A stretch of DNA of 64,000 bases, taken from positions 1 through 64,000 of IMG/VR virus record IMGVR_UViG_3300050014_000310. One strand, 5' to 3'. How positions within the stretch are numbered: position 1 is the stretch's first letter; every line of letters starts with the position of its first letter. The translations under genes were made by a program, and so were the position numbers. Positions 2,325 through 9,781 of this stretch are shown here, piece by piece. This DNA comes from a virus. Below the pieces are notes generated by a model. That model was given only the letters and a program-made list of their open reading frames with translations, had not been told where the DNA came from and searched no databases.

Positions 2325-3130
2325 TCGAACAGCCTCCCCTGCCGCCTCACACATTCCGGGTTCATCCACAAAATTTCCGTCCGCTTCTTTCCTCGTTCCG
2401 CCGTGGCATCATGGGTCAACCGTGTCCAGTGTTTCAGCCTGTCATCGTAGAGCGGACAGGCGTAGCCGGAGAGGATGACCGGGCCCGGGTGAGCATCTAA
2501 GACATCGAGTAATTCAGCGTGATCGGCGTCGGTCAATTCGGCGCTGTACATTTCTCCGCTCCATCTGTCGCCTCGTATTTTCTGAACGTAGGGCGGATCG
2601 CAGTAGATAAGCACTTCAGGATTGCTGTACCGCTTAATAACTTTGACCCCTGGTTGATTTTCGATCTGGGCATGTAGCAAACGGTCAGCAACAACCGCGA
2701 TTCTCTTCGGCAATGCTCTCCAGTTCTGAGTACAATAGCGGCCTCTGGATGATATGGAGTGCGCCCAGCCTGTTTCATCGTTGAACTTTGCACCAAAGGA
2801 TTGCCAACACCTTACGAGAAATCTCCGGGCATCTTCTAGCTCATCGCCGGCGTGCGTAAAACTGGCATCGTATTCTTCGCGGCTCCAGGGAGTCATTTCA
2901 ACTGCGGCAGCTAGTTCATCTTTGCGAGTCCGGATCACTCGGAACAGGTTTGTAACATCACTATCCAAGTCGTTGATCGTCTCAAACTTCGAGGGTTGTT
3001 TGCAGAAGAACACCGCGCCGCTTCCGAAGAACGGCTCCAGGTAATGCACATGTTCGGGCATTTGGTCAATGATCCACTGAGCGAGAGTCCATTTGCTCCC
3101 CGGCCATCTAAGCACTGGCGCGATGTTCAT
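2321..3130 (-). CDS. dam: DNA adenine methylase (D12/Dam class)
   Basis: LRWPGSK, EPFFGSGAV, INDLD, CDPPY. Confidence 0.92.
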   Translation of the reverse strand: MNIAPVLRWPGSKWTLAQWIIDQMPEHVHYLEPFFGSGAVFFCKQPSKFETINDLDSDVTNLFRVIRTRKDELAAAVEMTPWSREEYDASFTHAGDELEDARRFLVRCWQSFGAKFNDETGWAHSISSRGRYCTQNWRALPKRIAVVADRLLHAQIENQPGVKVIKRYSNPEVLIYCDPPYVQKIRGDRWSGEMYSAELTDADHAELLDVLDAHPGPVILSGYACPLYDDRLKHWTRLTHDATAERGKKRTEILWMNPECVRRQGRLFD

Positions 3131-3315: not shown

Positions 3316-3521
3316 GCCTCCGCCACCCCCTTTGTGCATACTGCACTGTCGCTCTCTGTCCCGTAGTACTCCCAAGTCCCTCGCTGCTCGATCTCGGACA
3401 CCCTCAGTCTGATCAGCCCCGGGTGCTTCTTTTCGATCTTCTCGACCGCCGTCTCCCTGCTGGCTGCGAATACGCGTCCCATGTGGCAAATGACTGTGCC
3501 TGCGATGTAGTCTTGGTTCAT
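3312..3521 (-). CDS. hypothetical protein
   Basis: ATGA-coupled ORF. Confidence 0.5.
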   Translation of the reverse strand: MNQDYIAGTVICHMGRVFAASRETAVEKIEKKHPGLIRLRVSEIEQRGTWEYYGTESDSAVCTKGVAEA

Positions 3522-4018
3522 ATTGCCACGCTCCATCTCCACTTTTTCTCCACGAACAAACTGGGTTGCCGATGCCTACCGTCAACGTCCCAACTACCGC
3601 CGCCGTGCAACCCCTCGTTGATCCACCCGACCGCCCGGAGTGATGCGCCTGATTCCTCCTTGAAGGTGTAGGTGATCAGCCGTTTGAACCCCATGGCCTT
3701 TGCTGCCCGCTGACAAGCTCCGTACAGCATACTGTTGGCGTTCCTGGTGCCGTCCGTGCAGGTTCGTCGGACTTCCGCTGTCAGACCGATCTCCATTGGA
3801 TTCTCTGACCAAGAAAAGAGCCACACCTGTGCTGTCAGGCCATTTTTCAGGTATTGAGAGAGCGGATTCCCGCCAATCGCCACGCCACAGAGTCTTCCAT
3901 CGTCAGCCACGCCAAGGCAGAAACGGTATCCATTGTTGATCGGTTTGTGGTGCCGATGATAGGCAACGATGAAGGCGTTGGCCTCTTTCAGCGTGACTGG
4001 AACGACGGCCAGACTCAT
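3518..4018 (-). CDS. XF1762-family protein (GNAT/Mom-related, putative DNA modification)
   Basis: EANAFI..YHRHHKP, CTDGTRNA.SMLYGA, LITYT..EESGASLRA.GW. Confidence 0.8.
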   Translation of the reverse strand: MSLAVVPVTLKEANAFIVAYHRHHKPINNGYRFCLGVADDGRLCGVAIGGNPLSQYLKNGLTAQVWLFSWSENPMEIGLTAEVRRTCTDGTRNANSMLYGACQRAAKAMGFKRLITYTFKEESGASLRAVGWINEGLHGGGSWDVDGRHRQPSLFVEKKWRWSVAI

Positions 4019-4245
4019 ACCTCACACCCCCAAAACTGTTCAAACTCTGGTGCTGGATACCTCACGCAGTCGAGCGGCGGCGTGTAGCTCAGGCCGTGAT
4101 TCTCGCAGGTTTTGGCCGCCATTCGCTCGTTGATCGGCATGCCATAGGGGATATCGTTGATTTCGCAAAAACGTTTGATCATTGATTCGCTCGGTTCTTC
4201 ATCATATCGGTTTTTGATGAACTCTTTGTATTCATTGACTGTCAT
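4015..4245 (-). CDS. hypothetical protein
   Basis: Operonic ORF. Confidence 0.5.
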   Translation of the reverse strand: MTVNEYKEFIKNRYDEEPSESMIKRFCEINDIPYGMPINERMAAKTCENHGLSYTPPLDCVRYPAPEFEQFWGCEV

Positions 4246-4741
4246 AGATATACTCCTGCATATGCTTTATGCTTTTTATCTTGCCATCATATTTAGAATG
4301 GCAGGATCGGCACATTCGCTTATAATCAGCGGGATCTTCATAATTACCGGTGAGATTTGCCCAATCATATCCTTTGCTTGGATCTGTTGTTCCGCATATT
4401 TCGCATTTTTGCGGTTTGCCATAAAGCGCATATAGCCTCTTGTGCAAAGCAACATAACAAGAATTTGAACCTTTCCATGATTTTTTACGACCAATATCTC
4501 TTTTAATCTCTATTCTTGGCTTGTATTGATTGCGCCGAAATGTTTTGAGTATAACCGTTTGCGTTGTTCCCAGGGCTGCACCAACTTCTGATTGAGTCAT
4601 GCCTGATTCGTATAGCCTCTTAACGTCTTCAAAAGAAATCGGGTACATTCGCGCTTTTACAGTGCATTGCCTTGAGCAGCATTTTGCTTTCGAATTATAG
4701 CTAATAAATTGCTTACCGCATTGCTGGCAGATATGATTCAT
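4232..4741 (-). CDS. HNH-like homing endonuclease with Zn-finger/HTH N-terminus
   Basis: CQQCG..CCSRQC, HTH segment, ALHK...CEICG...WAN...MCRSCH; lower GC than flanks. Confidence 0.7.
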   Translation of the reverse strand: MNHICQQCGKQFISYNSKAKCCSRQCTVKARMYPISFEDVKRLYESGMTQSEVGAALGTTQTVILKTFRRNQYKPRIEIKRDIGRKKSWKGSNSCYVALHKRLYALYGKPQKCEICGTTDPSKGYDWANLTGNYEDPADYKRMCRSCHSKYDGKIKSIKHMQEYIYDSQ

Positions 4742-4821: not shown

Positions 4822-5678
4822 TCAAGGTTCAAAGAAGAGCACCCCGCTTTCGTCTGTCATCCTCAATTGATCCTTGAACTCTTTTGGTGCTGCTTTTCCG
4901 CTGATCCACCAGTTGAACATGTCTTCACCTGATTGCCAGCAAGAGTCTGCCAATTTGCCTTTCTTTTCTATCAGATGGGCATATGCTTTGTTGCAAGTCG
5001 TTTATACTGGTCGGCTACTTTCGGCCAATATGCCATGTCTTTTTTGATGGCATGGGGTGATTGCTGGGGACACATGATACAGCCCAATCGCTTGAAAGCC
5101 CGTGGCGCTTCTCCCCCGCTGGACGAAGGCCACTCAGTACGAATGTCGTAAAGGTTGCAATATGGAATGCTGTGTTTGTGGATATATTCCCAAACATCTG
5201 CCTCTGTCCAATCAAAGATCGGGTGCAGAAACCGCTTGGAATTGTCGTTATAACAGGCCTCTACCTGCTGCCTTTTGCGGCGTTTGGTGCTCTCCCATTT
5301 CCTCACGCCTGTTACAACAAAGCGGCCAGCACCACCACGCTCTTTCAGGTAAGCGCAGCAATAACGCATGATATGGGTAGGTGGAATCATTTTCTTCTCA
5401 ATCAGCCGCCACATACTGATTGTTGGCCTCTCCCTAATCGTCTCCGGGTGATTATCCCGGATGAAATGCACCAGCTCCGGCGGGTCAACGGTGGTAATGT
5501 GGTAGTGGGCATCGAACTTGACGCCAGAGCGAATAAGCAGATCGCGGACGACGGTTGAATCCTTGCTCCCGGAATTGGCGAAGTAGTAACCTTCTGGCGG
5601 CTCAAAATGGCGCAGGGCTGCGATGGAATTAGCTATTTTATCGACGTCGCCGAATAGGGTATGCTCGATCAGGCTCAT
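4822..5678 (-). pseudogene. PAPS-reductase-family protein, frameshifted near 4997
   Basis: NSGSKDS PP-loop, RYCC..LKE, TGVR..ES..R, HPIFDW, RLGCIMCP; C-terminus (WQSGEDMFNWW) continues in the -1 frame to a stop at 4822. Confidence 0.75.
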
Positions 5679-5839
5679 CTCTCCAACTCCCTCACCCTGG
5701 CTTCTAGCCGCTTGCACTCGGCGATCCTCTGCCGTAGCAGGTTCAAATATCTGCCGGCGCGGGCTTCAGCCATGTAGCACTTTTGCTCCCAGGTGCTCTT
5801 GTGGGGGATGTTGTTTGTGGGATCGGGGCATCGGTTCAT
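5675..5839 (-). CDS. small hypothetical protein
   Basis: GAGGTG RBS, TAATG coupling. Confidence 0.55.
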   Translation of the reverse strand: MNRCPDPTNNIPHKSTWEQKCYMAEARAGRYLNLLRQRIAECKRLEARVRELER

Positions 5840-5990
5840 TACTGCACCTCGATCCATTCCGGCGCCTCATTCTGTCCGCTCACCCACACTCCCGTGCATC
5901 CCAGCACCCACTCGCCTGCAGCAGCTACTAGCAGCGATGTCAGGATCTCCTCGCCCATCGCCTGGGCACTTTTAGTAGGAACCATGTTAT
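5839..5990 (-). pseudogene. displaced duplicate 3' end of the C5 methyltransferase gene
   Basis: NMVP..SAQAMGEEILTSLLVA..EW.LG.TGVWV...PEWIEVQ aligns with the MTase C-terminus at 6545-6700. Confidence 0.85.
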
Positions 5991-5993
5991 TTC

Positions 5994-6545
5994 TCATTGA
6001 GCAACACTCTCCAATTCCGGCTGTTTCTTGAGCCGATCCAGCCGGGCGTGTTCTCTGCCGTGATGTTTTCTGCACAACCTGACTAGGTTCGATGGTTCAT
6101 TGTTGAAGGGGTCCTCATCTTTGTGATGCACGTCTACCCCGTTATGGTCACACTGAGCGCATGGCCCCGGTGGAAGCAGATGCCTTGCCCTCCACCTGGA
6201 TTCAGCAGCCGTTATGGACTCTTTCCAGTTGGAGTTCTCCGGGCCGAATTTTGCTATTGCTTTATGCGTCTCAGAACGTTTCTGCTTTGTCGCTTCGCTC
6301 TGTTTGATGCCCGTTAACGATTGAGCAATTTTAGCCCGGTTCTCCGGTGTCCTTGTTCGTCCGGAATTGATCTGTGACTTGATTTTGGCGAAGATTTCTG
6401 GTCGCTTTTTAACTTTTAACCGGGACGCTCGATGCTTGATGGCATTGTGGGTACGCTCAGGTAAGAAACCTTCATTCCAGCCAAGATTCGGGTAGACTTC
6501 ACGAATCCAAGTATCTTCTTGGGGTGTCCATGGTTTGCTTGACAT
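5994..6545 (-). CDS. free-standing HNH homing endonuclease with NUMOD3 repeats
   Basis: TPENRAKIA and SEATKQKRS repeats; CAQC..VHHKD..PFNN..NLVRLCRKHH. Confidence 0.85.
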   Translation of the reverse strand: MSSKPWTPQEDTWIREVYPNLGWNEGFLPERTHNAIKHRASRLKVKKRPEIFAKIKSQINSGRTRTPENRAKIAQSLTGIKQSEATKQKRSETHKAIAKFGPENSNWKESITAAESRWRARHLLPPGPCAQCDHNGVDVHHKDEDPFNNEPSNLVRLCRKHHGREHARLDRLKKQPELESVAQ

Positions 6546-9500
6546 CACCGTACCTCGATCCATTCTGGACTATTTGGGTTTTTGATTACCCATACTCCAG
6601 TGCTACCGAGCGTCCATTCGTCCATACTAGCTACCAATAAAGCAGTCAAGATTTCTTCACCCATTGCTCTAGCTGAGGCAACAGGAACAGCATTGCCGAT
6701 GCGTTCTCTATGGCGGGAGTCCGATTTCCCGGCCAGCACCAGGGGCGATCCGTCCGGCATGGTTGGCTCCATCCCCTGCAAAACTGCCAATTCCAATGTT
6801 GTGAGGGGCCGGTGCCAGGTCCCGTCCAGGGCAATAATCAAGTAAGCTCCGGTCTCGTTGTCGGCCGGAACTCTCGGGTCGGCTATCGCATTGGTTCCGG
6901 AATGAATGTCAGCGGCGCCGCAGACGGTAACGCCTGATTTGTCCCAGTCCATGACACCGTAGATACCATTGCGCTTGCGGGGATCGGCAACTGATGGCGC
7001 CCCGTTCGTTGGCCCTGCGGCTCCGGTCACTACCTTGGCCGGAGTGTCCCATTGACCAACCTGCAAAATATTGGGCATTGCATTTGGGTTAAGGTTATAG
7101 CGAGGGTCGGCCACAGTAGCAACCCCATTGGAACTGCTGACCGTGACGCTGCCAGTCACGGTTTTTGCTGGCTTGCCCCAGTCGGCCACGCCCATGAGGT
7201 TCGGTCTCGAGTTACACCCGATGCGAGGATCGGCAATCGAAGGCGCTCCGGCCTGAACGTCGGCAATCCCTGTCACGCAGGCAGCCGGTTCGTCGAAGGC
7301 GCACAGTTGATACTTGTTGTGGAAGCGAGTCTTAACCTGTGGCAATCTCGGATCGGCCACGCCCGGGGCCCCGCTGCCGAACCTGGTCCCGGTCACGCAT
7401 GGCGCTGGATCATCGAACTTGATCACCTGGTAGACGGAAGGATACCGGCCGTCCCGGGGATTGAGCCGGGGATCGGATACAGAAAGTGATCCCGCTATCG
7501 GCCGGGTCGCTCCGGTCACCACATAGGACGGTTCATCCCAGGCCTGTACCTGATGGCAATTAGAGAATGTTTGTCCGCTCACCCGGGGATCGGACACTGC
7601 AGCCACTCCATTACTTCCACCTGTCCGGGCATGCCCAACAACTGCCTTACTCGGTTCATTCCAATCTGCAACCTGGAACACTCCAGCCCGTGGTTCATGC
7701 CCGAGCCTCGGATCTGCAACGCTGGTGGCGCCGTTGGATGGAGAATGTCCACTCGTAACCGTCCCGGCCGCTTCGTCCCAGGGCACGATCCGGTAGGAGT
7801 TTTTAAACGAGTCTCCGATCTTCTCGAGGTCCCGCCAATCACCCCCGGCCGGAATCAGCGCCAACCTGACCCACGTCTTCCACTGCAGATTTGGCAGTCG
7901 GTGCATGGGGCCAAGCGAAGGATCTCCCGGCAACGCCAACGGGCCGATGATCTCGCCAATAGACTTTACCCGGCGCTTCGGAGGCAGGTAGATGTGGTTC
8001 GGCATCTTCTCTTTGTTCCGGGCGATCAGCAGATACCGTGTCCTGTGCTGTCCCAGTCCGCCGATCTCGCCGCAGTCATAGGAGTTTTCGTCGAATTCGT
8101 AGCCATGGGCGCCCAGCATCTTTTTGATCTGGTCGAGTAGGGCTTTTCCTCGAGATGTGATCTTGGGCACGTTCTCGAATAGAAGCACAGCCGGCGGGTC
8201 ATCCTCGAAAGCCTCAACAACCAGACTGAGCCCCCGGTATGCCAGTTTGTTCAACGCCTGATACTTCGGGCTCTCCGCCGCTTTCTTGGGCAGCAACCCG
8301 CTGAAGCCCTTGCAGTTATGGGTAGCCATCATTGGTACACAGAAGGTATTATCTTCGTCAACTTCAAGATTCCAGACCTGTGCGATTGTTTGATATGACT
8401 TAATTTCTTTAACTCTTACCCAAATTGCTCCATCAATAAATTCATGAACAGGCCTCTTTTTTGGATCAAATCGAAAAGCTAGTTCCCATCGTTGCTTTGT
8501 CTGGACATCTCTGCCCATAATCGTTTGTTTTCCGCCTGGCCAACAGTTATTAATGCCTCCATATAATCCTAAACGAAGCATGAGGATCTGTAGACTCTTG
8601 AGAAGTTGCAGAGATACTGATGGTAGTTTCCACCGCGCCTGAAGCTCATTATTTGCTTGGCACCGGGGTTGTATGCTGCCATCTGTAGCCATATAGCCAT
8701 CGAATAATGCTTTAATGAGCGGTGTTTCTAGTTCCATGAGACTCCATGGGATATTTTTGTTTTCCGCTCCATCTCCGAAGGCACCCATTATCATGCTAAG
8801 ATGACGTGAATCGAGACGGATCTTGATATTATTTTCTCCGTTCGAAGCATCTTCGTTCCAATTCAAACCGAGATGTTGCAGGATTGAGCGAATCCTGACT
8901 GCTAAGTCACTTTTTGAATCTCCAATGCAGAAGTTAGTTCCATATCGATCATGGCGGCGATAACCATCCCCAAGATAAGCACCGATAAGAAACCAGAGAT
9001 CAATATCTTCAGCATAGGGATTGAGATCTATGATTTTTGATATTCTGGCTGTGTGGGAAGCATTTTTTTCGCCGTTTTTCTGGACAACCTGTGGATCTCC
9101 GAATGATTCAACAAACTTTCTTGCACAACCAGGAGATTCATTGATTACCGGAAATCCTATTCTGTCGCCTACTTTTATTTTATTTGCTGCCACAAATTCC
9201 GGTTTTCCCAGTGCTCTTTTTCTGTTGGTTGCTTTGCAACGAATAACCTTTCTTCGCCAGATTGGGTGATCAGCAGTAAGATCTCGAAAATCAACGTCTC
9301 CATTAAGACGGATCTCAACCATGTTACCTTGATACAGTTCAGTGCCCACCTTATTAACTTGCCGATACCGTCCCCTGTGGGTGAGTACCATATCGCCGTG
9401 TCGAATGGCATCAATACGCCGTGGGCCATCGATCGCCAGAACTTTTTCATATCCTGGTAGGCAGGGTGCCGAAAAGAAAACAGTGTCGGGAGTCTTGTAT

Positions 9501-9781
9501 CCGCAGATTCGCCGGATGTCTTCGGCCGTGACTTCCTGCCACCCGGCCGGAGGTTCGCTGCCGTGGAATGCTACGTAATCTTCCCTCGAGAATAGATCCA
9601 TCTGGACGGCCGGCGCGCCGGTTAACATCTCGAAGTCCTGGCAGGCCTCGGGATCGCAGTCGATACCCGCGATGGTCCGGAACTTGGCGACTACGCCCCG
9701 GAACTCTCCGGCCGCCTGCTGGAAACCTAGAGCGGCGCCGCCCAGGCCGCAGAACATATGTAAAATGGTGAACTCTTGCAT
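6545..9781 (-). CDS. DNA cytosine-C5 methyltransferase with intein and tandem repeat array
   Basis: HMFCGLGG (I), SAP/CKGFS (IV), FENVP (VI), QHRTR (VIII), RPLTTLE (IX), IGNAVP (X). Confidence 0.93.
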   Translation of the reverse strand: MQEFTILHMFCGLGGAALGFQQAAGEFRGVVAKFRTIAGIDCDPEACQDFEMLTGAPAVQMDLFSREDYVAFHGSEPPAGWQEVTAEDIRRICGYKTPDTVFFSAPCLPGYEKVLAIDGPRRIDAIRHGDMVLTHRGRYRQVNKVGTELYQGNMVEIRLNGDVDFRDLTADHPIWRRKVIRCKATNRKRALGKPEFVAANKIKVGDRIGFPVINESPGCARKFVESFGDPQVVQKNGEKNASHTARISKIIDLNPYAEDIDLWFLIGAYLGDGYRRHDRYGTNFCIGDSKSDLAVRIRSILQHLGLNWNEDASNGENNIKIRLDSRHLSMIMGAFGDGAENKNIPWSLMELETPLIKALFDGYMATDGSIQPRCQANNELQARWKLPSVSLQLLKSLQILMLRLGLYGGINNCWPGGKQTIMGRDVQTKQRWELAFRFDPKKRPVHEFIDGAIWVRVKEIKSYQTIAQVWNLEVDEDNTFCVPMMATHNCKGFSGLLPKKAAESPKYQALNKLAYRGLSLVVEAFEDDPPAVLLFENVPKITSRGKALLDQIKKMLGAHGYEFDENSYDCGEIGGLGQHRTRYLLIARNKEKMPNHIYLPPKRRVKSIGEIIGPLALPGDPSLGPMHRLPNLQWKTWVRLALIPAGGDWRDLEKIGDSFKNSYRIVPWDEAAGTVTSGHSPSNGATSVADPRLGHEPRAGVFQVADWNEPSKAVVGHARTGGSNGVAAVSDPRVSGQTFSNCHQVQAWDEPSYVVTGATRPIAGSLSVSDPRLNPRDGRYPSVYQVIKFDDPAPCVTGTRFGSGAPGVADPRLPQVKTRFHNKYQLCAFDEPAACVTGIADVQAGAPSIADPRIGCNSRPNLMGVADWGKPAKTVTGSVTVSSSNGVATVADPRYNLNPNAMPNILQVGQWDTPAKVVTGAAGPTNGAPSVADPRKRNGIYGVMDWDKSGVTVCGAADIHSGTNAIADPRVPADNETGAYLIIALDGTWHRPLTTLELAVLQGMEPTMPDGSPLVLAGKSDSRHRERIGNAVPVASARAMGEEILTALLVASMDEWTLGSTGVWVIKNPNSPEWIEVR
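6872..7795 (-). repeat. 8 tandem ~36-42 aa repeats (W/FD.P..VTG....G..SVADPR) in the MTase variable region
   Basis: Eight (A/S)DPR-terminated units counted in the translation. Confidence 0.9.
8315..9463 (-). mobile_element. intein (383 aa) with LAGLIDADG endonuclease, in the C5 MTase
   Basis: Starts CLPG, block B TADHP, LIGAYLGDG and FDGYMATDG, ends THN followed by C; low GC. Confidence 0.93.

Follow-up and report, generated by a model that had tools for sequence, protein, structure and literature searches.

A phage-borne C5 cytosine DNA methyltransferase with a modular array of eight variable units between motifs VIII and IX

The window analyzed here (64,000 nucleotides, positions 1 to 64,000 of the IMG/VR virus record IMGVR_UViG_3300050014_000310) contains on its minus strand a gene (6545..9781; stop codon 6545-6547) that, according to the ORF list and its translation, encodes a precursor of 1078 aa including an intein. 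The original prediction that its product is a C5 cytosine DNA methyltransferase was borne out by a match to Pfam family PF00145 (E 1.1e-15; 58.4 bits versus a cut-off of 22, over three stretches) and by the C5 motifs I, IV (Pro-Cys), VI, VIII, IX, and X, all of which were found in canonical order (FCGLGG at aa 10-15; FENVP at aa 535-539; QHRTRYLLIA, motif VIII, at aa 578-587; motif IX at aa 990-1003; GNAVP at aa 1029-1033). In a Pfam search, this was the sole PF00145 gene across the 128,693-base virus record, and no restriction enzyme was detected by Pfam in the seven neighboring ORFs scanned. Judged by its sequence, the gene product is an orphan phage enzyme that belongs to a very large family of C5 cytosine DNA methyltransferases found in phages and prophages.

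The precursor begins with an N-extein (9464..9781, minus strand; aa 1-106), which reaches from motif I through the Pro of motif IV (FFSAP) and is 95-100% identical to that of P0002, an intein-less homologue. It is followed by an intein of 383 aa (8315..9463, minus strand; aa 107-489) that splits the catalytic Pro-Cys of motif IV. The intein has Cys1 (C107), the block B T-x-x-H (TADH, aa 169-172), the terminal His-Asn (aa 488-489), and two LAGLIDADG motifs; its +1 residue (C490) also serves motif IV as the catalytic Cys. In Pfam, it matched LAGLIDADG_3 (E 1.2e-9), and also Hint_2, the latter with 18.1 bits and hence under the cut-off of 28.4. Its GC content is 40-48%, compared with 57-63% for the exteins. 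P0002 reads FFSAPCKGFSG without interruption, which corresponds to an empty intein site, and an intein at the identical site was found in another viral locus (L026). Because the intein separates the Pro from the catalytic Cys, motif IV would be contiguous, and the enzyme active, only after protein splicing. The first part of the C-extein (7796..8314, minus strand; aa 490-662) contains CKGFSG with the catalytic Cys, motifs VI and VIII, and the constant start of the variable region; this constant part ends in GGDWRDL (aa 646-652), for which a weak profile alignment to DNMT1 was obtained. The C-extein tail (6548..6871, minus strand; aa 971-1078) comprises the conserved segment AYLIIALDGTW, motifs IX and X, which align to DNMT1 and M.HaeIII in profile alignments, and a C-terminus that has diverged from that of P0002.

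The methyltransferase gene has at its 3′ end a second gene (5994..6563, minus strand; 189 aa), for an HNH endonuclease, the start of which overlaps the preceding stop codon. Its match to Pfam HNH_3 (E 5.1e-4) lies under the cut-off of that family, and its GC content is 46-52%. Downstream of it, a stretch of 49 codons plus stop (5839..5988, minus strand) encodes 48 of the 49 residues of the P0002 C-terminus, whereas the tail now in use has diverged from it. The HNH gene is an insertion at the methyltransferase 3′ end, and the original end has been displaced and survives as a remnant. Two selfish elements share one host gene at this locus, the intein, at the catalytic Cys, and, at the 3′ end, the gene for the HNH endonuclease.

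The stretch 6872-7795 (minus strand) coincides exactly with the array, starting with unit 1 at aa 663 and ending with unit 8 at aa 970. The array is situated between motifs VIII and IX, as had been proposed. It consists of exactly eight units of 29-31 residues, repeated with a period of 35-41 aa, and the frame of the units is Y-x-V-x-x-W-D-x-P-x-x-T-V-T-G, loop, G, x-x-x-V-A-D-P-R. Every unit is closed by D-P-R (aa 690, 731, 770, 810, 851, 892, 933, and 968; spacing 35-41 aa), contains W or F, and has a Gly after the loop, and the Pro of W-D-x-P is present in six of the eight. Eight units with a conserved frame had been predicted, and all eight loop strings quoted at the time were found, in the order given. 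Beginning with the one next to motif VIII, and all on the minus strand, these are unit 1 (7706..7795; aa 663-692; loop TSGHSPSNG; type 7), unit 2 (7583..7675; aa 703-733; VGHARTGGSNG; type 6), unit 3 (7466..7552; aa 744-772; TGATRPIAG; type 2), unit 4 (7346..7432; aa 784-812; TGTRFGSG; type 3), unit 5 (7223..7312; aa 824-853; TGIADVQAG; type 5), unit 6 (7100..7192; aa 864-894; TGSVTVSSSNG; type 6), unit 7 (6977..7063; aa 907-935; TGAAGPTNG; type 2), and unit 8 (6872..6961; aa 941-970; CGAADIHSG; type 1). Thus, at a clustering distance of 50%, types 2 and 6 are each represented by two units in the window protein. A profile made from the units recovered all eight of them at domain E<0.01. On the level of DNA, TRF detected no tandem repeat (0 rows), and across units only stretches of 11-31 nt recur (62-100% identity), the clearest of them at the junctions marked by A-D-P-R. 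The repeat must therefore be an old one, recognizable in the protein sequence alone. A degenerate junction pattern matched seven times in the whole window, a number that was reached in one of 100 shuffles and is not clearly above chance.

Relatives of the enzyme were found at no fewer than 676 IMG/VR loci (obtained with an alignment query; a single-protein query returned none), protein searches returned thousands of matches, and the array alone matches 258 50%-identity clusters at E<=1e-10. The comparison of units was made on 247 relatives, the best-scoring hits of searches returning thousands of proteins, in which the unit profile found 1346 units. The number of units in these 247 proteins ranges from 3 to 11, and protein length grows by ∼40 aa per unit. 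Among the best 80 of the at least 676 IMG/VR loci, 79 have 3-8 units and one (L087), with a cut-off frame, has none; 145 further 50%-cluster representatives have 3-11. Complete members with two units were also found, as were forms with one intact unit. Clustering at 50% distance divided the units of the 247 proteins into 83 types, of which type 3 accounts for 184 of the 1346 units. Within a type, loops are 0.71 identical, compared with 0.24 between types; for the scaffold, the values are 0.75 and 0.63, respectively. The loops, which had been called hypervariable, are so between units but not within a unit type, where they are conserved across distant homologues. Internal unit types are conserved even across proteins whose cores are only ∼40-60% identical.

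Units of the same type rarely occur twice in one protein (at 50% distance, 32 duplicates versus the 222 ± 10 expected when labels are shuffled; at 40% distance, 11 versus 132 ± 8). Type 1 is terminal in 200 of its 215 occurrences, one first type leads in 95 of 100, and a clade from proteobacterial phages has its own fixed last type. With last and first types nearly fixed, the array is therefore partly constrained in position. The order is partly shuffled, both orders being seen for 30 of 79 co-occurring type pairs at 50% distance and for 12 of 68 at 40%. One member (P0246) retains an intact first-type unit, the loop of its last unit being deleted. It should be considered that a structural array with positional orthology would likewise yield non-redundancy and conserved types.

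The composition of the array changes between close relatives. Unit architecture differs in 148 of the 171 protein pairs with cores at least 85% identical, some pairs with identical cores have four versus three units, and between 184 and 215 distinct architectures were counted among the 247 proteins. P0002, which also has eight units and is 84% identical to the window protein, differs from it mainly at units 1-2, where identity is 25-70%, compared with 95-100% over most of the remaining length. This difference is a cassette swap in which the window protein itself is involved, and comparison of the sequences indicates that unit turnover outpaces core divergence. The prediction of a modular, shufflable array therefore stands, with counts from 1-2 to 11, discrete and non-redundant types, and swaps, gains, and losses of units; the condition named beforehand as refuting it, a fixed number of repeats in a single fold, is excluded.

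Phage methyltransferases acting on several restriction sites together have been known since the 1980s from a few Bacillus phages. These multispecific C5 enzymes of temperate Bacillus phages (M.SPRI, M.Phi3TI, M.SPBetaI, M.Rho11sI, and M.H2I) have three to four active modules, each of which gives one target, and the modules can be recombined; the work on them is reportedly that of Behrens in 1987, Wilke in 1988, Trautner in 1988 and 1996, and Lange in 1991. Like the SPR/phi3T/SPbeta group, the window enzyme is an orphan phage C5 methyltransferase with several short tandem modules between motifs VIII and IX. In the modules of the SPbeta/phi3T enzyme, a P-x-T-[LVF]-T-like core can be read. In contrast to the Bacillus group, the present family has up to 11 units, a sharply periodic A-D-P-R frame, and dozens of unit types. 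No Bacillus phage was matched by tblastn with the window enzyme (39 records) or with that of PBC5 (43 records), and the unit profile scored the SPbeta/phi3T enzyme with E 0.9 (domain E 5). As no sequence kinship with SPR/phi3T is detectable beyond the general C5 motifs, the comparison is one of analogy, not of membership. The parallel drawn in the original prediction holds for the architecture, through the tandem modules between motifs VIII and IX.

A second group for comparison is formed by enzymes of relaxed specificity, namely JCM7686_0772 and JCM7686_2655 of Paracoccus aminophilus prophages, ARM81ld_p31, ARM81mr_p29, and RHXG_00060 of RR1-A. They are likewise orphan C5 enzymes of phages and prophages (∼550-700 aa). 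RHXG_00060 of the Rhizobium phage RR1-A has nine units and ARM81ld_p31 of an Aeromonas phage has five; these units, 32-42 aa long and with the core [DE]-P-x-x-T-[VI]-T, form a tandem array that separates motif VIII from motif IX. Next after the RR1-A gene comes a gene for a PAPS reductase, which is also the case in the window. However, the group belongs to another C5 subfamily (motif IV SPDCKHFS; motif VI ENVEEF) without the A-D-P-R frame, and although RR1-A and ARM81ld were in the phage collection searched, neither was matched by tblastn with the window enzyme or with that of PBC5. In the accessible parts of the respective reports, the Paracoccus members are described as conferring partial DNA protection at many unrelated sites that contain cytosine (PMC3925955, PMC5537653, PMC6536676), and those parts make no mention of a repeat architecture. 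The arrays were read in RR1-A and ARM81ld_p31, and it is the homology statement in the same accessible parts that ties the Paracoccus enzymes to them. A further paper (PMC4936722) deals with an m4C enzyme that is unrelated. In the literature searched, which covers few subscription journals and makes this provisional, no paper was found on the architecture of the A-D-P-R repeat family or on a tested member of it.

AlphaFold2 was run on two homologues of the window protein, P0002 (with 80 sequences) and the two-unit P0268 (with 50 sequences). In both, the core was predicted with pLDDT >90, dropping to ∼55-65 just before the units, and neither of the two runs gave a confident structure for the units (pLDDT 30-55 for the array of P0002 and 32-43 for the two units of P0268); variable unit numbers hinder the alignment register, which may have contributed to these low values. 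Foldseek with the homologue models retrieved MET1, DNMT1, and ZMET2 (E 1e-15 to 1e-13) as well as M.HaeIII and M.HhaI (E 1e-12 to 1e-11), all by way of the core only, and a sequence profile matched the solved structures of DNMT1 (1.4e-9) and M.HaeIII (7e-5). The window enzyme thus shares core fold and motif order with monospecific C5 enzymes and with the DNMT1/MET1 catalytic domains. The difference is that theirs is one element inside a folded recognition domain, whereas here eight are present in an array predicted with low confidence. In a monospecific enzyme (PMC11954522; multispecific enzymes are not discussed there), the unit skeleton occurs a single time and immediately precedes motif IX. 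A profile of the terminal unit plus tail placed the last unit on M.HaeIII residues 234-255, weakly (E 0.025) and with the alignment driven by motifs IX-X. The unit-only profile retrieved no solved methyltransferase or repeat fold; its matches to a clostridial toxin repeat, viral VP3, and NF-kB were rejected as chance, as were an antibody match of the whole C-extein in a single-sequence search and the single-sequence matches of unit 8 plus tail. The notion that the W..P..T element is the recognition scaffold of C5 enzymes is therefore backed by the single copy in a monospecific enzyme and by the weak M.HaeIII alignment, but not by the unit-only profile.

With moderate confidence, we favor the explanation that the array is a set of recognition cassettes, one per target, which would make methylation multispecific and give the enzyme a role in anti-restriction. 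The variable region is composed of the constant scaffold and, following it, eight different cassettes of ∼40 residues, each of which would repeat the element present a single time, just before motif IX, in ordinary C5 enzymes. A cassette would provide a strand, a T-V-T-G turn that matches the position of the conserved "TL", a loop of 5-9 residues equivalent to recognition Loop 2, and a second strand closed by A-D-P-R. Each cassette type would read one short DNA word, with one cassette at a time docking between the catalytic core and the major groove and the others held out of the way. A single enzyme could then methylate several sites and protect phage DNA during replication against several restriction systems of the host, and by recombination at the conserved cassette boundaries, phages might retune their repertoire. 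The docking of single units is without structural support because the pLDDT of the units was low in both AlphaFold2 runs. According to the accessible part of PMC2790894, M.HhaI and M.HaeIII read DNA via two loops around a conserved TL dipeptide, both of which are needed; one 30-residue unit may not supply the two.

Alternatively, the whole array may be one loose DNA-binding surface for a very short or degenerate target, such as a dinucleotide context, with unit content tuning affinity or processivity. The sole experimental reports on array-bearing phage C5 enzymes, which concern the other family, speak in their accessible parts of "relaxed substrate specificity" with partial protection, a result equally compatible with a short, degenerate target and with many discrete ones, and the lack of ordered unit structure in the AlphaFold2 models is in line with this possibility. 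However, a generic binding surface would not be expected to conserve its loops within types or to avoid repeating a type in one protein, and members with 1-2 units persist beside those with 11. On balance, we regard a single loose surface as unlikely.

It is also conceivable that a single element works and the remainder is a reservoir, so that most likely the last unit, next to motif IX, reads DNA and the upstream units are inert "pseudo-domains" or spacers for recombination. Inactive "pseudo" domains are on record for the Bacillus phage methyltransferases, ordinary enzymes carry their single copy at this same place before motif IX, and the last type is nearly fixed, both for type 1 and in the proteobacterial phage clade. 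Inert upstream units are difficult to reconcile with internal types that are conserved across strongly diverged cores and have loops 0.71 identical within a type, which argues for purifying selection, and, provided that P0246 is active, with its first-type unit, which is intact despite the deletion in the last one. Such a division of labor therefore appears decidedly improbable. That the repeats together form one closed or solenoid domain, for instance a propeller-like clamp in which all blades are needed, is suggested by the ∼40-residue period with its conserved hydrophobic positions, reminiscent of a beta-repeat, and by the fixed positions of the first and last unit types; yet this is largely refuted by unit numbers that range from 1-2 to 11 and change between proteins with identical cores, and neither AlphaFold2 nor the unit profile revealed a repeat fold, so that it has very little left to recommend it. 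Equally hard to credit is a gene inactivated by the intein or by the HNH-associated tail replacement, with the array as a relic: the catalytic Pro-Cys is indeed split by 383 residues and the tail replaced, but all 1078 codons are open, the intein retains Cys1, T-x-x-H, His-Asn, and the +1 Cys, and the exteins are 95-100% identical to those of the intein-less P0002.

If the array consists of recognition cassettes, as we favor, one can go a step further, albeit tentatively. The family might amount to a combinatorial library, assembled in nature, of DNA-reading cassettes that are self-contained and ∼40 residues long, set on a common catalytic chassis and exchanged at the A-D-P-R joints; the low order predicted for the array would then reflect cassettes that fold and dock singly on DNA. 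To our knowledge, target reading by C5 enzymes is still unpredictable from sequence. Were the library real, pairing cassette types with 5mC motifs across phages would yield a recognition code for C5 enzymes and open a way to programmable multi-site cytosine methylases.

The family is far larger than the Bacillus group and has more modules per enzyme (up to 11), which are exchanged between near-identical enzymes. Protection of phage DNA at more than one kind of restriction site by a single enzyme is probable. Should every module set one target, this would explain how many temperate phages evade diverse restriction systems with one gene, and nature would have performed hundreds of module-swap "experiments" in this family, from which a module-to-motif code may be derived.

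The methyltransferase is encoded on the minus strand by a single open frame of 1078 codons (6545..9781), the sole PF00145 gene of a virus record that comprises 128,693 bases and is rated 92% complete. Pfam recognized the C5 cytosine DNA methyltransferase domain (PF00145; E = 1.1e-15) and, in addition, a LAGLIDADG domain. Direct reading of the protein located motif I (FCGLGG, aa 10-15), FFSAP (aa 102-106), an intein of 383 residues (aa 107-489; window 8315-9463), CKGFSG (aa 490-495), motif VI (FENVP, aa 535-539), motif VIII (QHRTRYLLIA, aa 578-587), and a constant stretch ending with GGDWRDL (aa 646-652). After eight repeat units (aa 663-970, by direct reading and unit profile) come a brief conserved stretch and the motifs IX (aa 990-1003) and X (GNAVP, aa 1029-1033). 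The original prediction had placed such an array between motifs VIII and IX, which proved correct: its coordinates (6872-7795) span exactly the stretch from the start of unit 1 to the end of unit 8, and every one of the eight loops it had named was found, in the order it gave. All eight units end with D-P-R (aa 690, 731, 770, 810, 851, 892, 933, and 968), have a period of 35-41 residues, and conform to the frame Y-x-V-x-x-[WF]-D-x-P-x-x-T-V-T-G, loop, G, x-x-x-[VI]-A-D-P-R. No tandem repeat was detected in the array DNA. Recurrence is limited to stretches of 11-31 nt with 62-100% identity, and most of those located at A-D-P-R joints lie about one to three unit lengths apart; the unit copies are therefore old and diverged. 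On the opposite strand lie two long open frames (7052-7489, 145 aa, and 7553-8140, 195 aa; both plus strand), probably shadow frames of the GC-rich coding region.

The intein is inserted between Pro106 and the catalytic cysteine of motif IV, so that this cysteine doubles as the intein +1 residue (nucleophile). In the intein, Cys1, T-x-x-H, His-Asn, and two LAGLIDADG motifs are preserved; its GC content is 40-48%, compared with 57-63% in the exteins. A viral relative (locus L026) contains a related intein at the identical site; in P0002 (705 aa, without intein), which among the matches listed is most similar to the window enzyme, the site is empty (FFSAPCKGFSG). After the methyltransferase stop follow an HNH endonuclease gene (5994-6563, minus strand) and, downstream of it, a 49-codon remnant (5839-5988, minus strand). 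Except for one residue, the remnant is identical with the P0002 C-terminus; the present tail of the methyltransferase has diverged, and after both gene ends an overlapping start, M-D-R-G-[TA]-V-M, is found. Judged from this arrangement, the HNH gene seems to have been acquired along with a foreign copy of the methyltransferase gene end, which looks like a homing event. Two further minus-strand ORFs lie nearby. One (3518-4018, 166 aa) matches the Mom family (PF25680) below threshold (23.5 bits versus a cut-off of 27.1) and may be a second DNA-modification gene; the other (4232-4741, 169 aa), without Pfam match at E ≤ 0.01, has many Cys-x-x-Cys pairs and an HNH-like C-terminal part and may be a further free-standing endonuclease of the same gene block.

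Relatives of the enzyme are numerous. Searching deposited phages (tblastn) retrieved 39 records, every one with less than 60% identity, mostly from Pseudomonas phages but also from Sinorhizobium phage PBC5 (8 units), Marinobacter phage PS3 (4), and Achromobacter phage CF418P1 (6); the Pseudomonas phage enzymes H66, BR228a, and LKA5 (4, 5, and 6 units, respectively) differ from one another by whole units. At least 676 IMG/VR loci code for a relative, among the 703 matched stretches listed, and 79 frames of the best 80 loci contain 3-8 units, the exception being a cut-off frame with none (L087). In a large protein collection, matches numbered 5047 among the 7999 scored candidates of near length and 3251 among the 8000 shorter ones; the best 120 of each, to which the window protein and six phage-encoded ones were added, formed a set of 247. 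A profile of the eight units, iterated on relatives, recovered all eight in the window enzyme and 1346 in the set, distributed over proteins with 3 (n = 17), 4 (52), 5 (74), 6 (52), 7 (29), 8 (10), 9 (9), 10 (3), and 11 (1) units, each extra unit adding ∼40 residues to the median protein length. Number and order of the units both vary among these homologues; an invariant number is ruled out.

Because ranking was by total score, low unit counts are under-sampled in both best-120 lists. A search that scored nothing but the constant region matched 2480 of 3484 candidates, among them complete two-unit enzymes (P0243, P0247, P0249, P0251, P0266, and P0268). P0246 and P0269 have one intact and one internally deleted unit each. 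The deletions are in frame; one protein has W-E fused directly to S-D-P-R, and from the other the N-terminal half of the first unit is missing, as expected if recombination occurred between conserved unit boundaries. Querying 1.84 billion cluster representatives with the array only gave 382 matches at E ≤ 0.001, of which 258 remained at 1e-10 and 68 at 1e-30. Among the best 150 were 145 new representatives, many of them fragments, with 3-11 units; seven (P0300, P0302, P0322, P0377, P0406, P0410, and P0413; 998-1203 aa) are well longer than their unit count accounts for and may hold inteins or fused domains.

The family is common, and the idea of a tandem recognition array is old; the classic multispecific C5 enzymes of Bacillus phages carry recognition modules in tandem. 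The likeness to SPR/phi3T proposed in the original prediction holds for this architecture only. The variable region of the SPbeta/phi3T enzyme has P-T-L-T-T and P-A-F-T-V-N elements, but is not recognized by the unit profile (E = 0.9), and tblastn against deposited phages did not connect the two families. Searches of an incomplete literature collection found no published description of the window family's architecture and no test of a member. On balance, we favor the reading that each cassette type of the spliced enzyme specifies one DNA word, that several sites are protected, and that the repertoire changes by recombination. A parallel exists in another C5 subfamily, to which RHXG_00060 of Rhizobium phage RR1-A and ARM81ld_p31 of Aeromonas phage phiARM81ld belong. 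Like the window enzyme, both have tandem units between motifs VIII and IX, in their case with a [DE]-P-x-x-T-[VI]-T core: nine in RR1-A (spaced by 32-42 residues; pattern search) and five in ARM81ld_p31 (four by pattern, one by eye). Arrays of such an element have thus emerged in two or more lineages of phage methyltransferases. A PAPS-reductase gene (2470-3001 of locus L099) directly follows the RR1-A methyltransferase, and in the window one of this family (PF01507, E = 1.7e-18; 4971-5717, minus strand) closely follows the methyltransferase block. Papers of one research group describe JCM7686/ARM81/RR1-A-type enzymes as proteins of about 700 aa that have homologous counterparts in phage RR1-A and the Aeromonas ARM81 phages (PMC5537653, PMC6536676); the relevant passages speak of relaxed specificity, report that members of this lineage protect many sites, and do not mention repeats. 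This parallel raises the odds of a multi-target window enzyme by analogy, not as evidence on the window family itself, and it fits many discrete targets as well as one degenerate target. The alternative that the array works cooperatively with relaxed specificity has a precedent in those reports; we consider it unlikely.

When the 1346 units were clustered by identity across 26 aligned columns, 83 types resulted at 50% distance, 34 of them with at least five members. The loops had been called hypervariable, which is true between types (0.24 identity in loop columns) but not within a type, where they are conserved and type-specific (0.71, units of different proteins only); scaffold columns are 0.75 identical within and 0.63 between types. 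A type is rarely present twice in one protein: same-type duplicates numbered 32 at 50% distance and 11 at 40%, versus 222 ± 10 and 132 ± 8 with shuffled labels, a shuffle that ignores relatedness and position. At the coarse 50% threshold, the window enzyme reads 7-6-2-3-5-6-2-1 and hence has two type-2 and two type-6 units. Of 215 units of the type with loop G-D-I-H-A-G, 200 stand last in their array, and another type is first in 95 of 100; internal types are less fixed, and both orders (minor order ≥10%) were seen for 30 of 79 type pairs co-occurring in at least eight proteins (12 of 68 at 40% distance). It is the last unit that, in a further alternative, would be the only working one, the upstream units serving as its reservoir; we regard this as distinctly improbable.

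Units turn over between close relatives. Unit architecture differs in 148 of 171 protein pairs whose cores (first ∼276 residues) are at least 85% identical (for example, 4 versus 3 units with identical cores and 9 versus 7 with 97% identical cores), and the number of different architectures among the 247 proteins is 184 with types drawn at 50% distance and 215 with types drawn at 40%, both measures being somewhat inflated if some short proteins are incomplete. Compared in steps of 20 residues, most of P0002 (4-8-2-3-5-6-2-1) is 95-100% identical to the window enzyme; identity falls to 5-14 of 20 over aa 644-732, a stretch that includes units 1 and 2, and drops again at aa 893-912 and within the C-terminal tail. 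By this comparison, the difference at units 1 and 2 is a cassette replacement within an otherwise near-identical gene.

Target reading by C5 methyltransferases is the task of a small variable domain. M.HhaI and M.HaeIII contact bases through two loops around a conserved Thr-Leu dipeptide (PMC2790894). The variable region of a monospecific enzyme (target CATCGATG; Methods of PMC11954522) ends with Y-G-R-M-E-W-D-K-P-S-P-T-I-T-T, a short loop, and G-x-x-G-H-P-E-Q-D-R, immediately followed by motif IX, and so shows the unit skeleton in a single copy. When the last unit and the C-terminal region were combined in a profile, the unit aligned to M.HaeIII residues 234-255 (E = 0.025, driven mainly by motifs IX-X), but a units-only profile matched no methyltransferase among solved structures. 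The proposed identity of the unit with the TRD scaffold is therefore only partly borne out, and to see in the unit a multiplied copy of the recognition domain's C-terminal element is reasonable but not proven. AlphaFold2 predicted the cores of P0002 and the two-unit P0268 with pLDDT >90 (Foldseek neighbors: MET1, DNMT1, ZMET2, M.HaeIII, and M.HhaI), and the units with pLDDT of 30-55 and 32-43, respectively, and nearly no secondary structure. Such models are compatible with units that order on DNA only, and the low values may reflect alignments losing register over variable arrays. A single structural fold (propeller or solenoid) formed by the units, weakly disfavored by the lack of a predicted repeat fold in both models, seems highly improbable; an inactive gene is equally hard to credit.

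If cassette types do specify words, intein splicing would first produce the common catalytic core with its constant scaffold, on which cassettes would dock in turn, each type reading one short DNA word. The repertoire would change through recombination at conserved boundaries (A-D-P-R and W-D-x-P), and one gene would protect the phage from several restriction systems.
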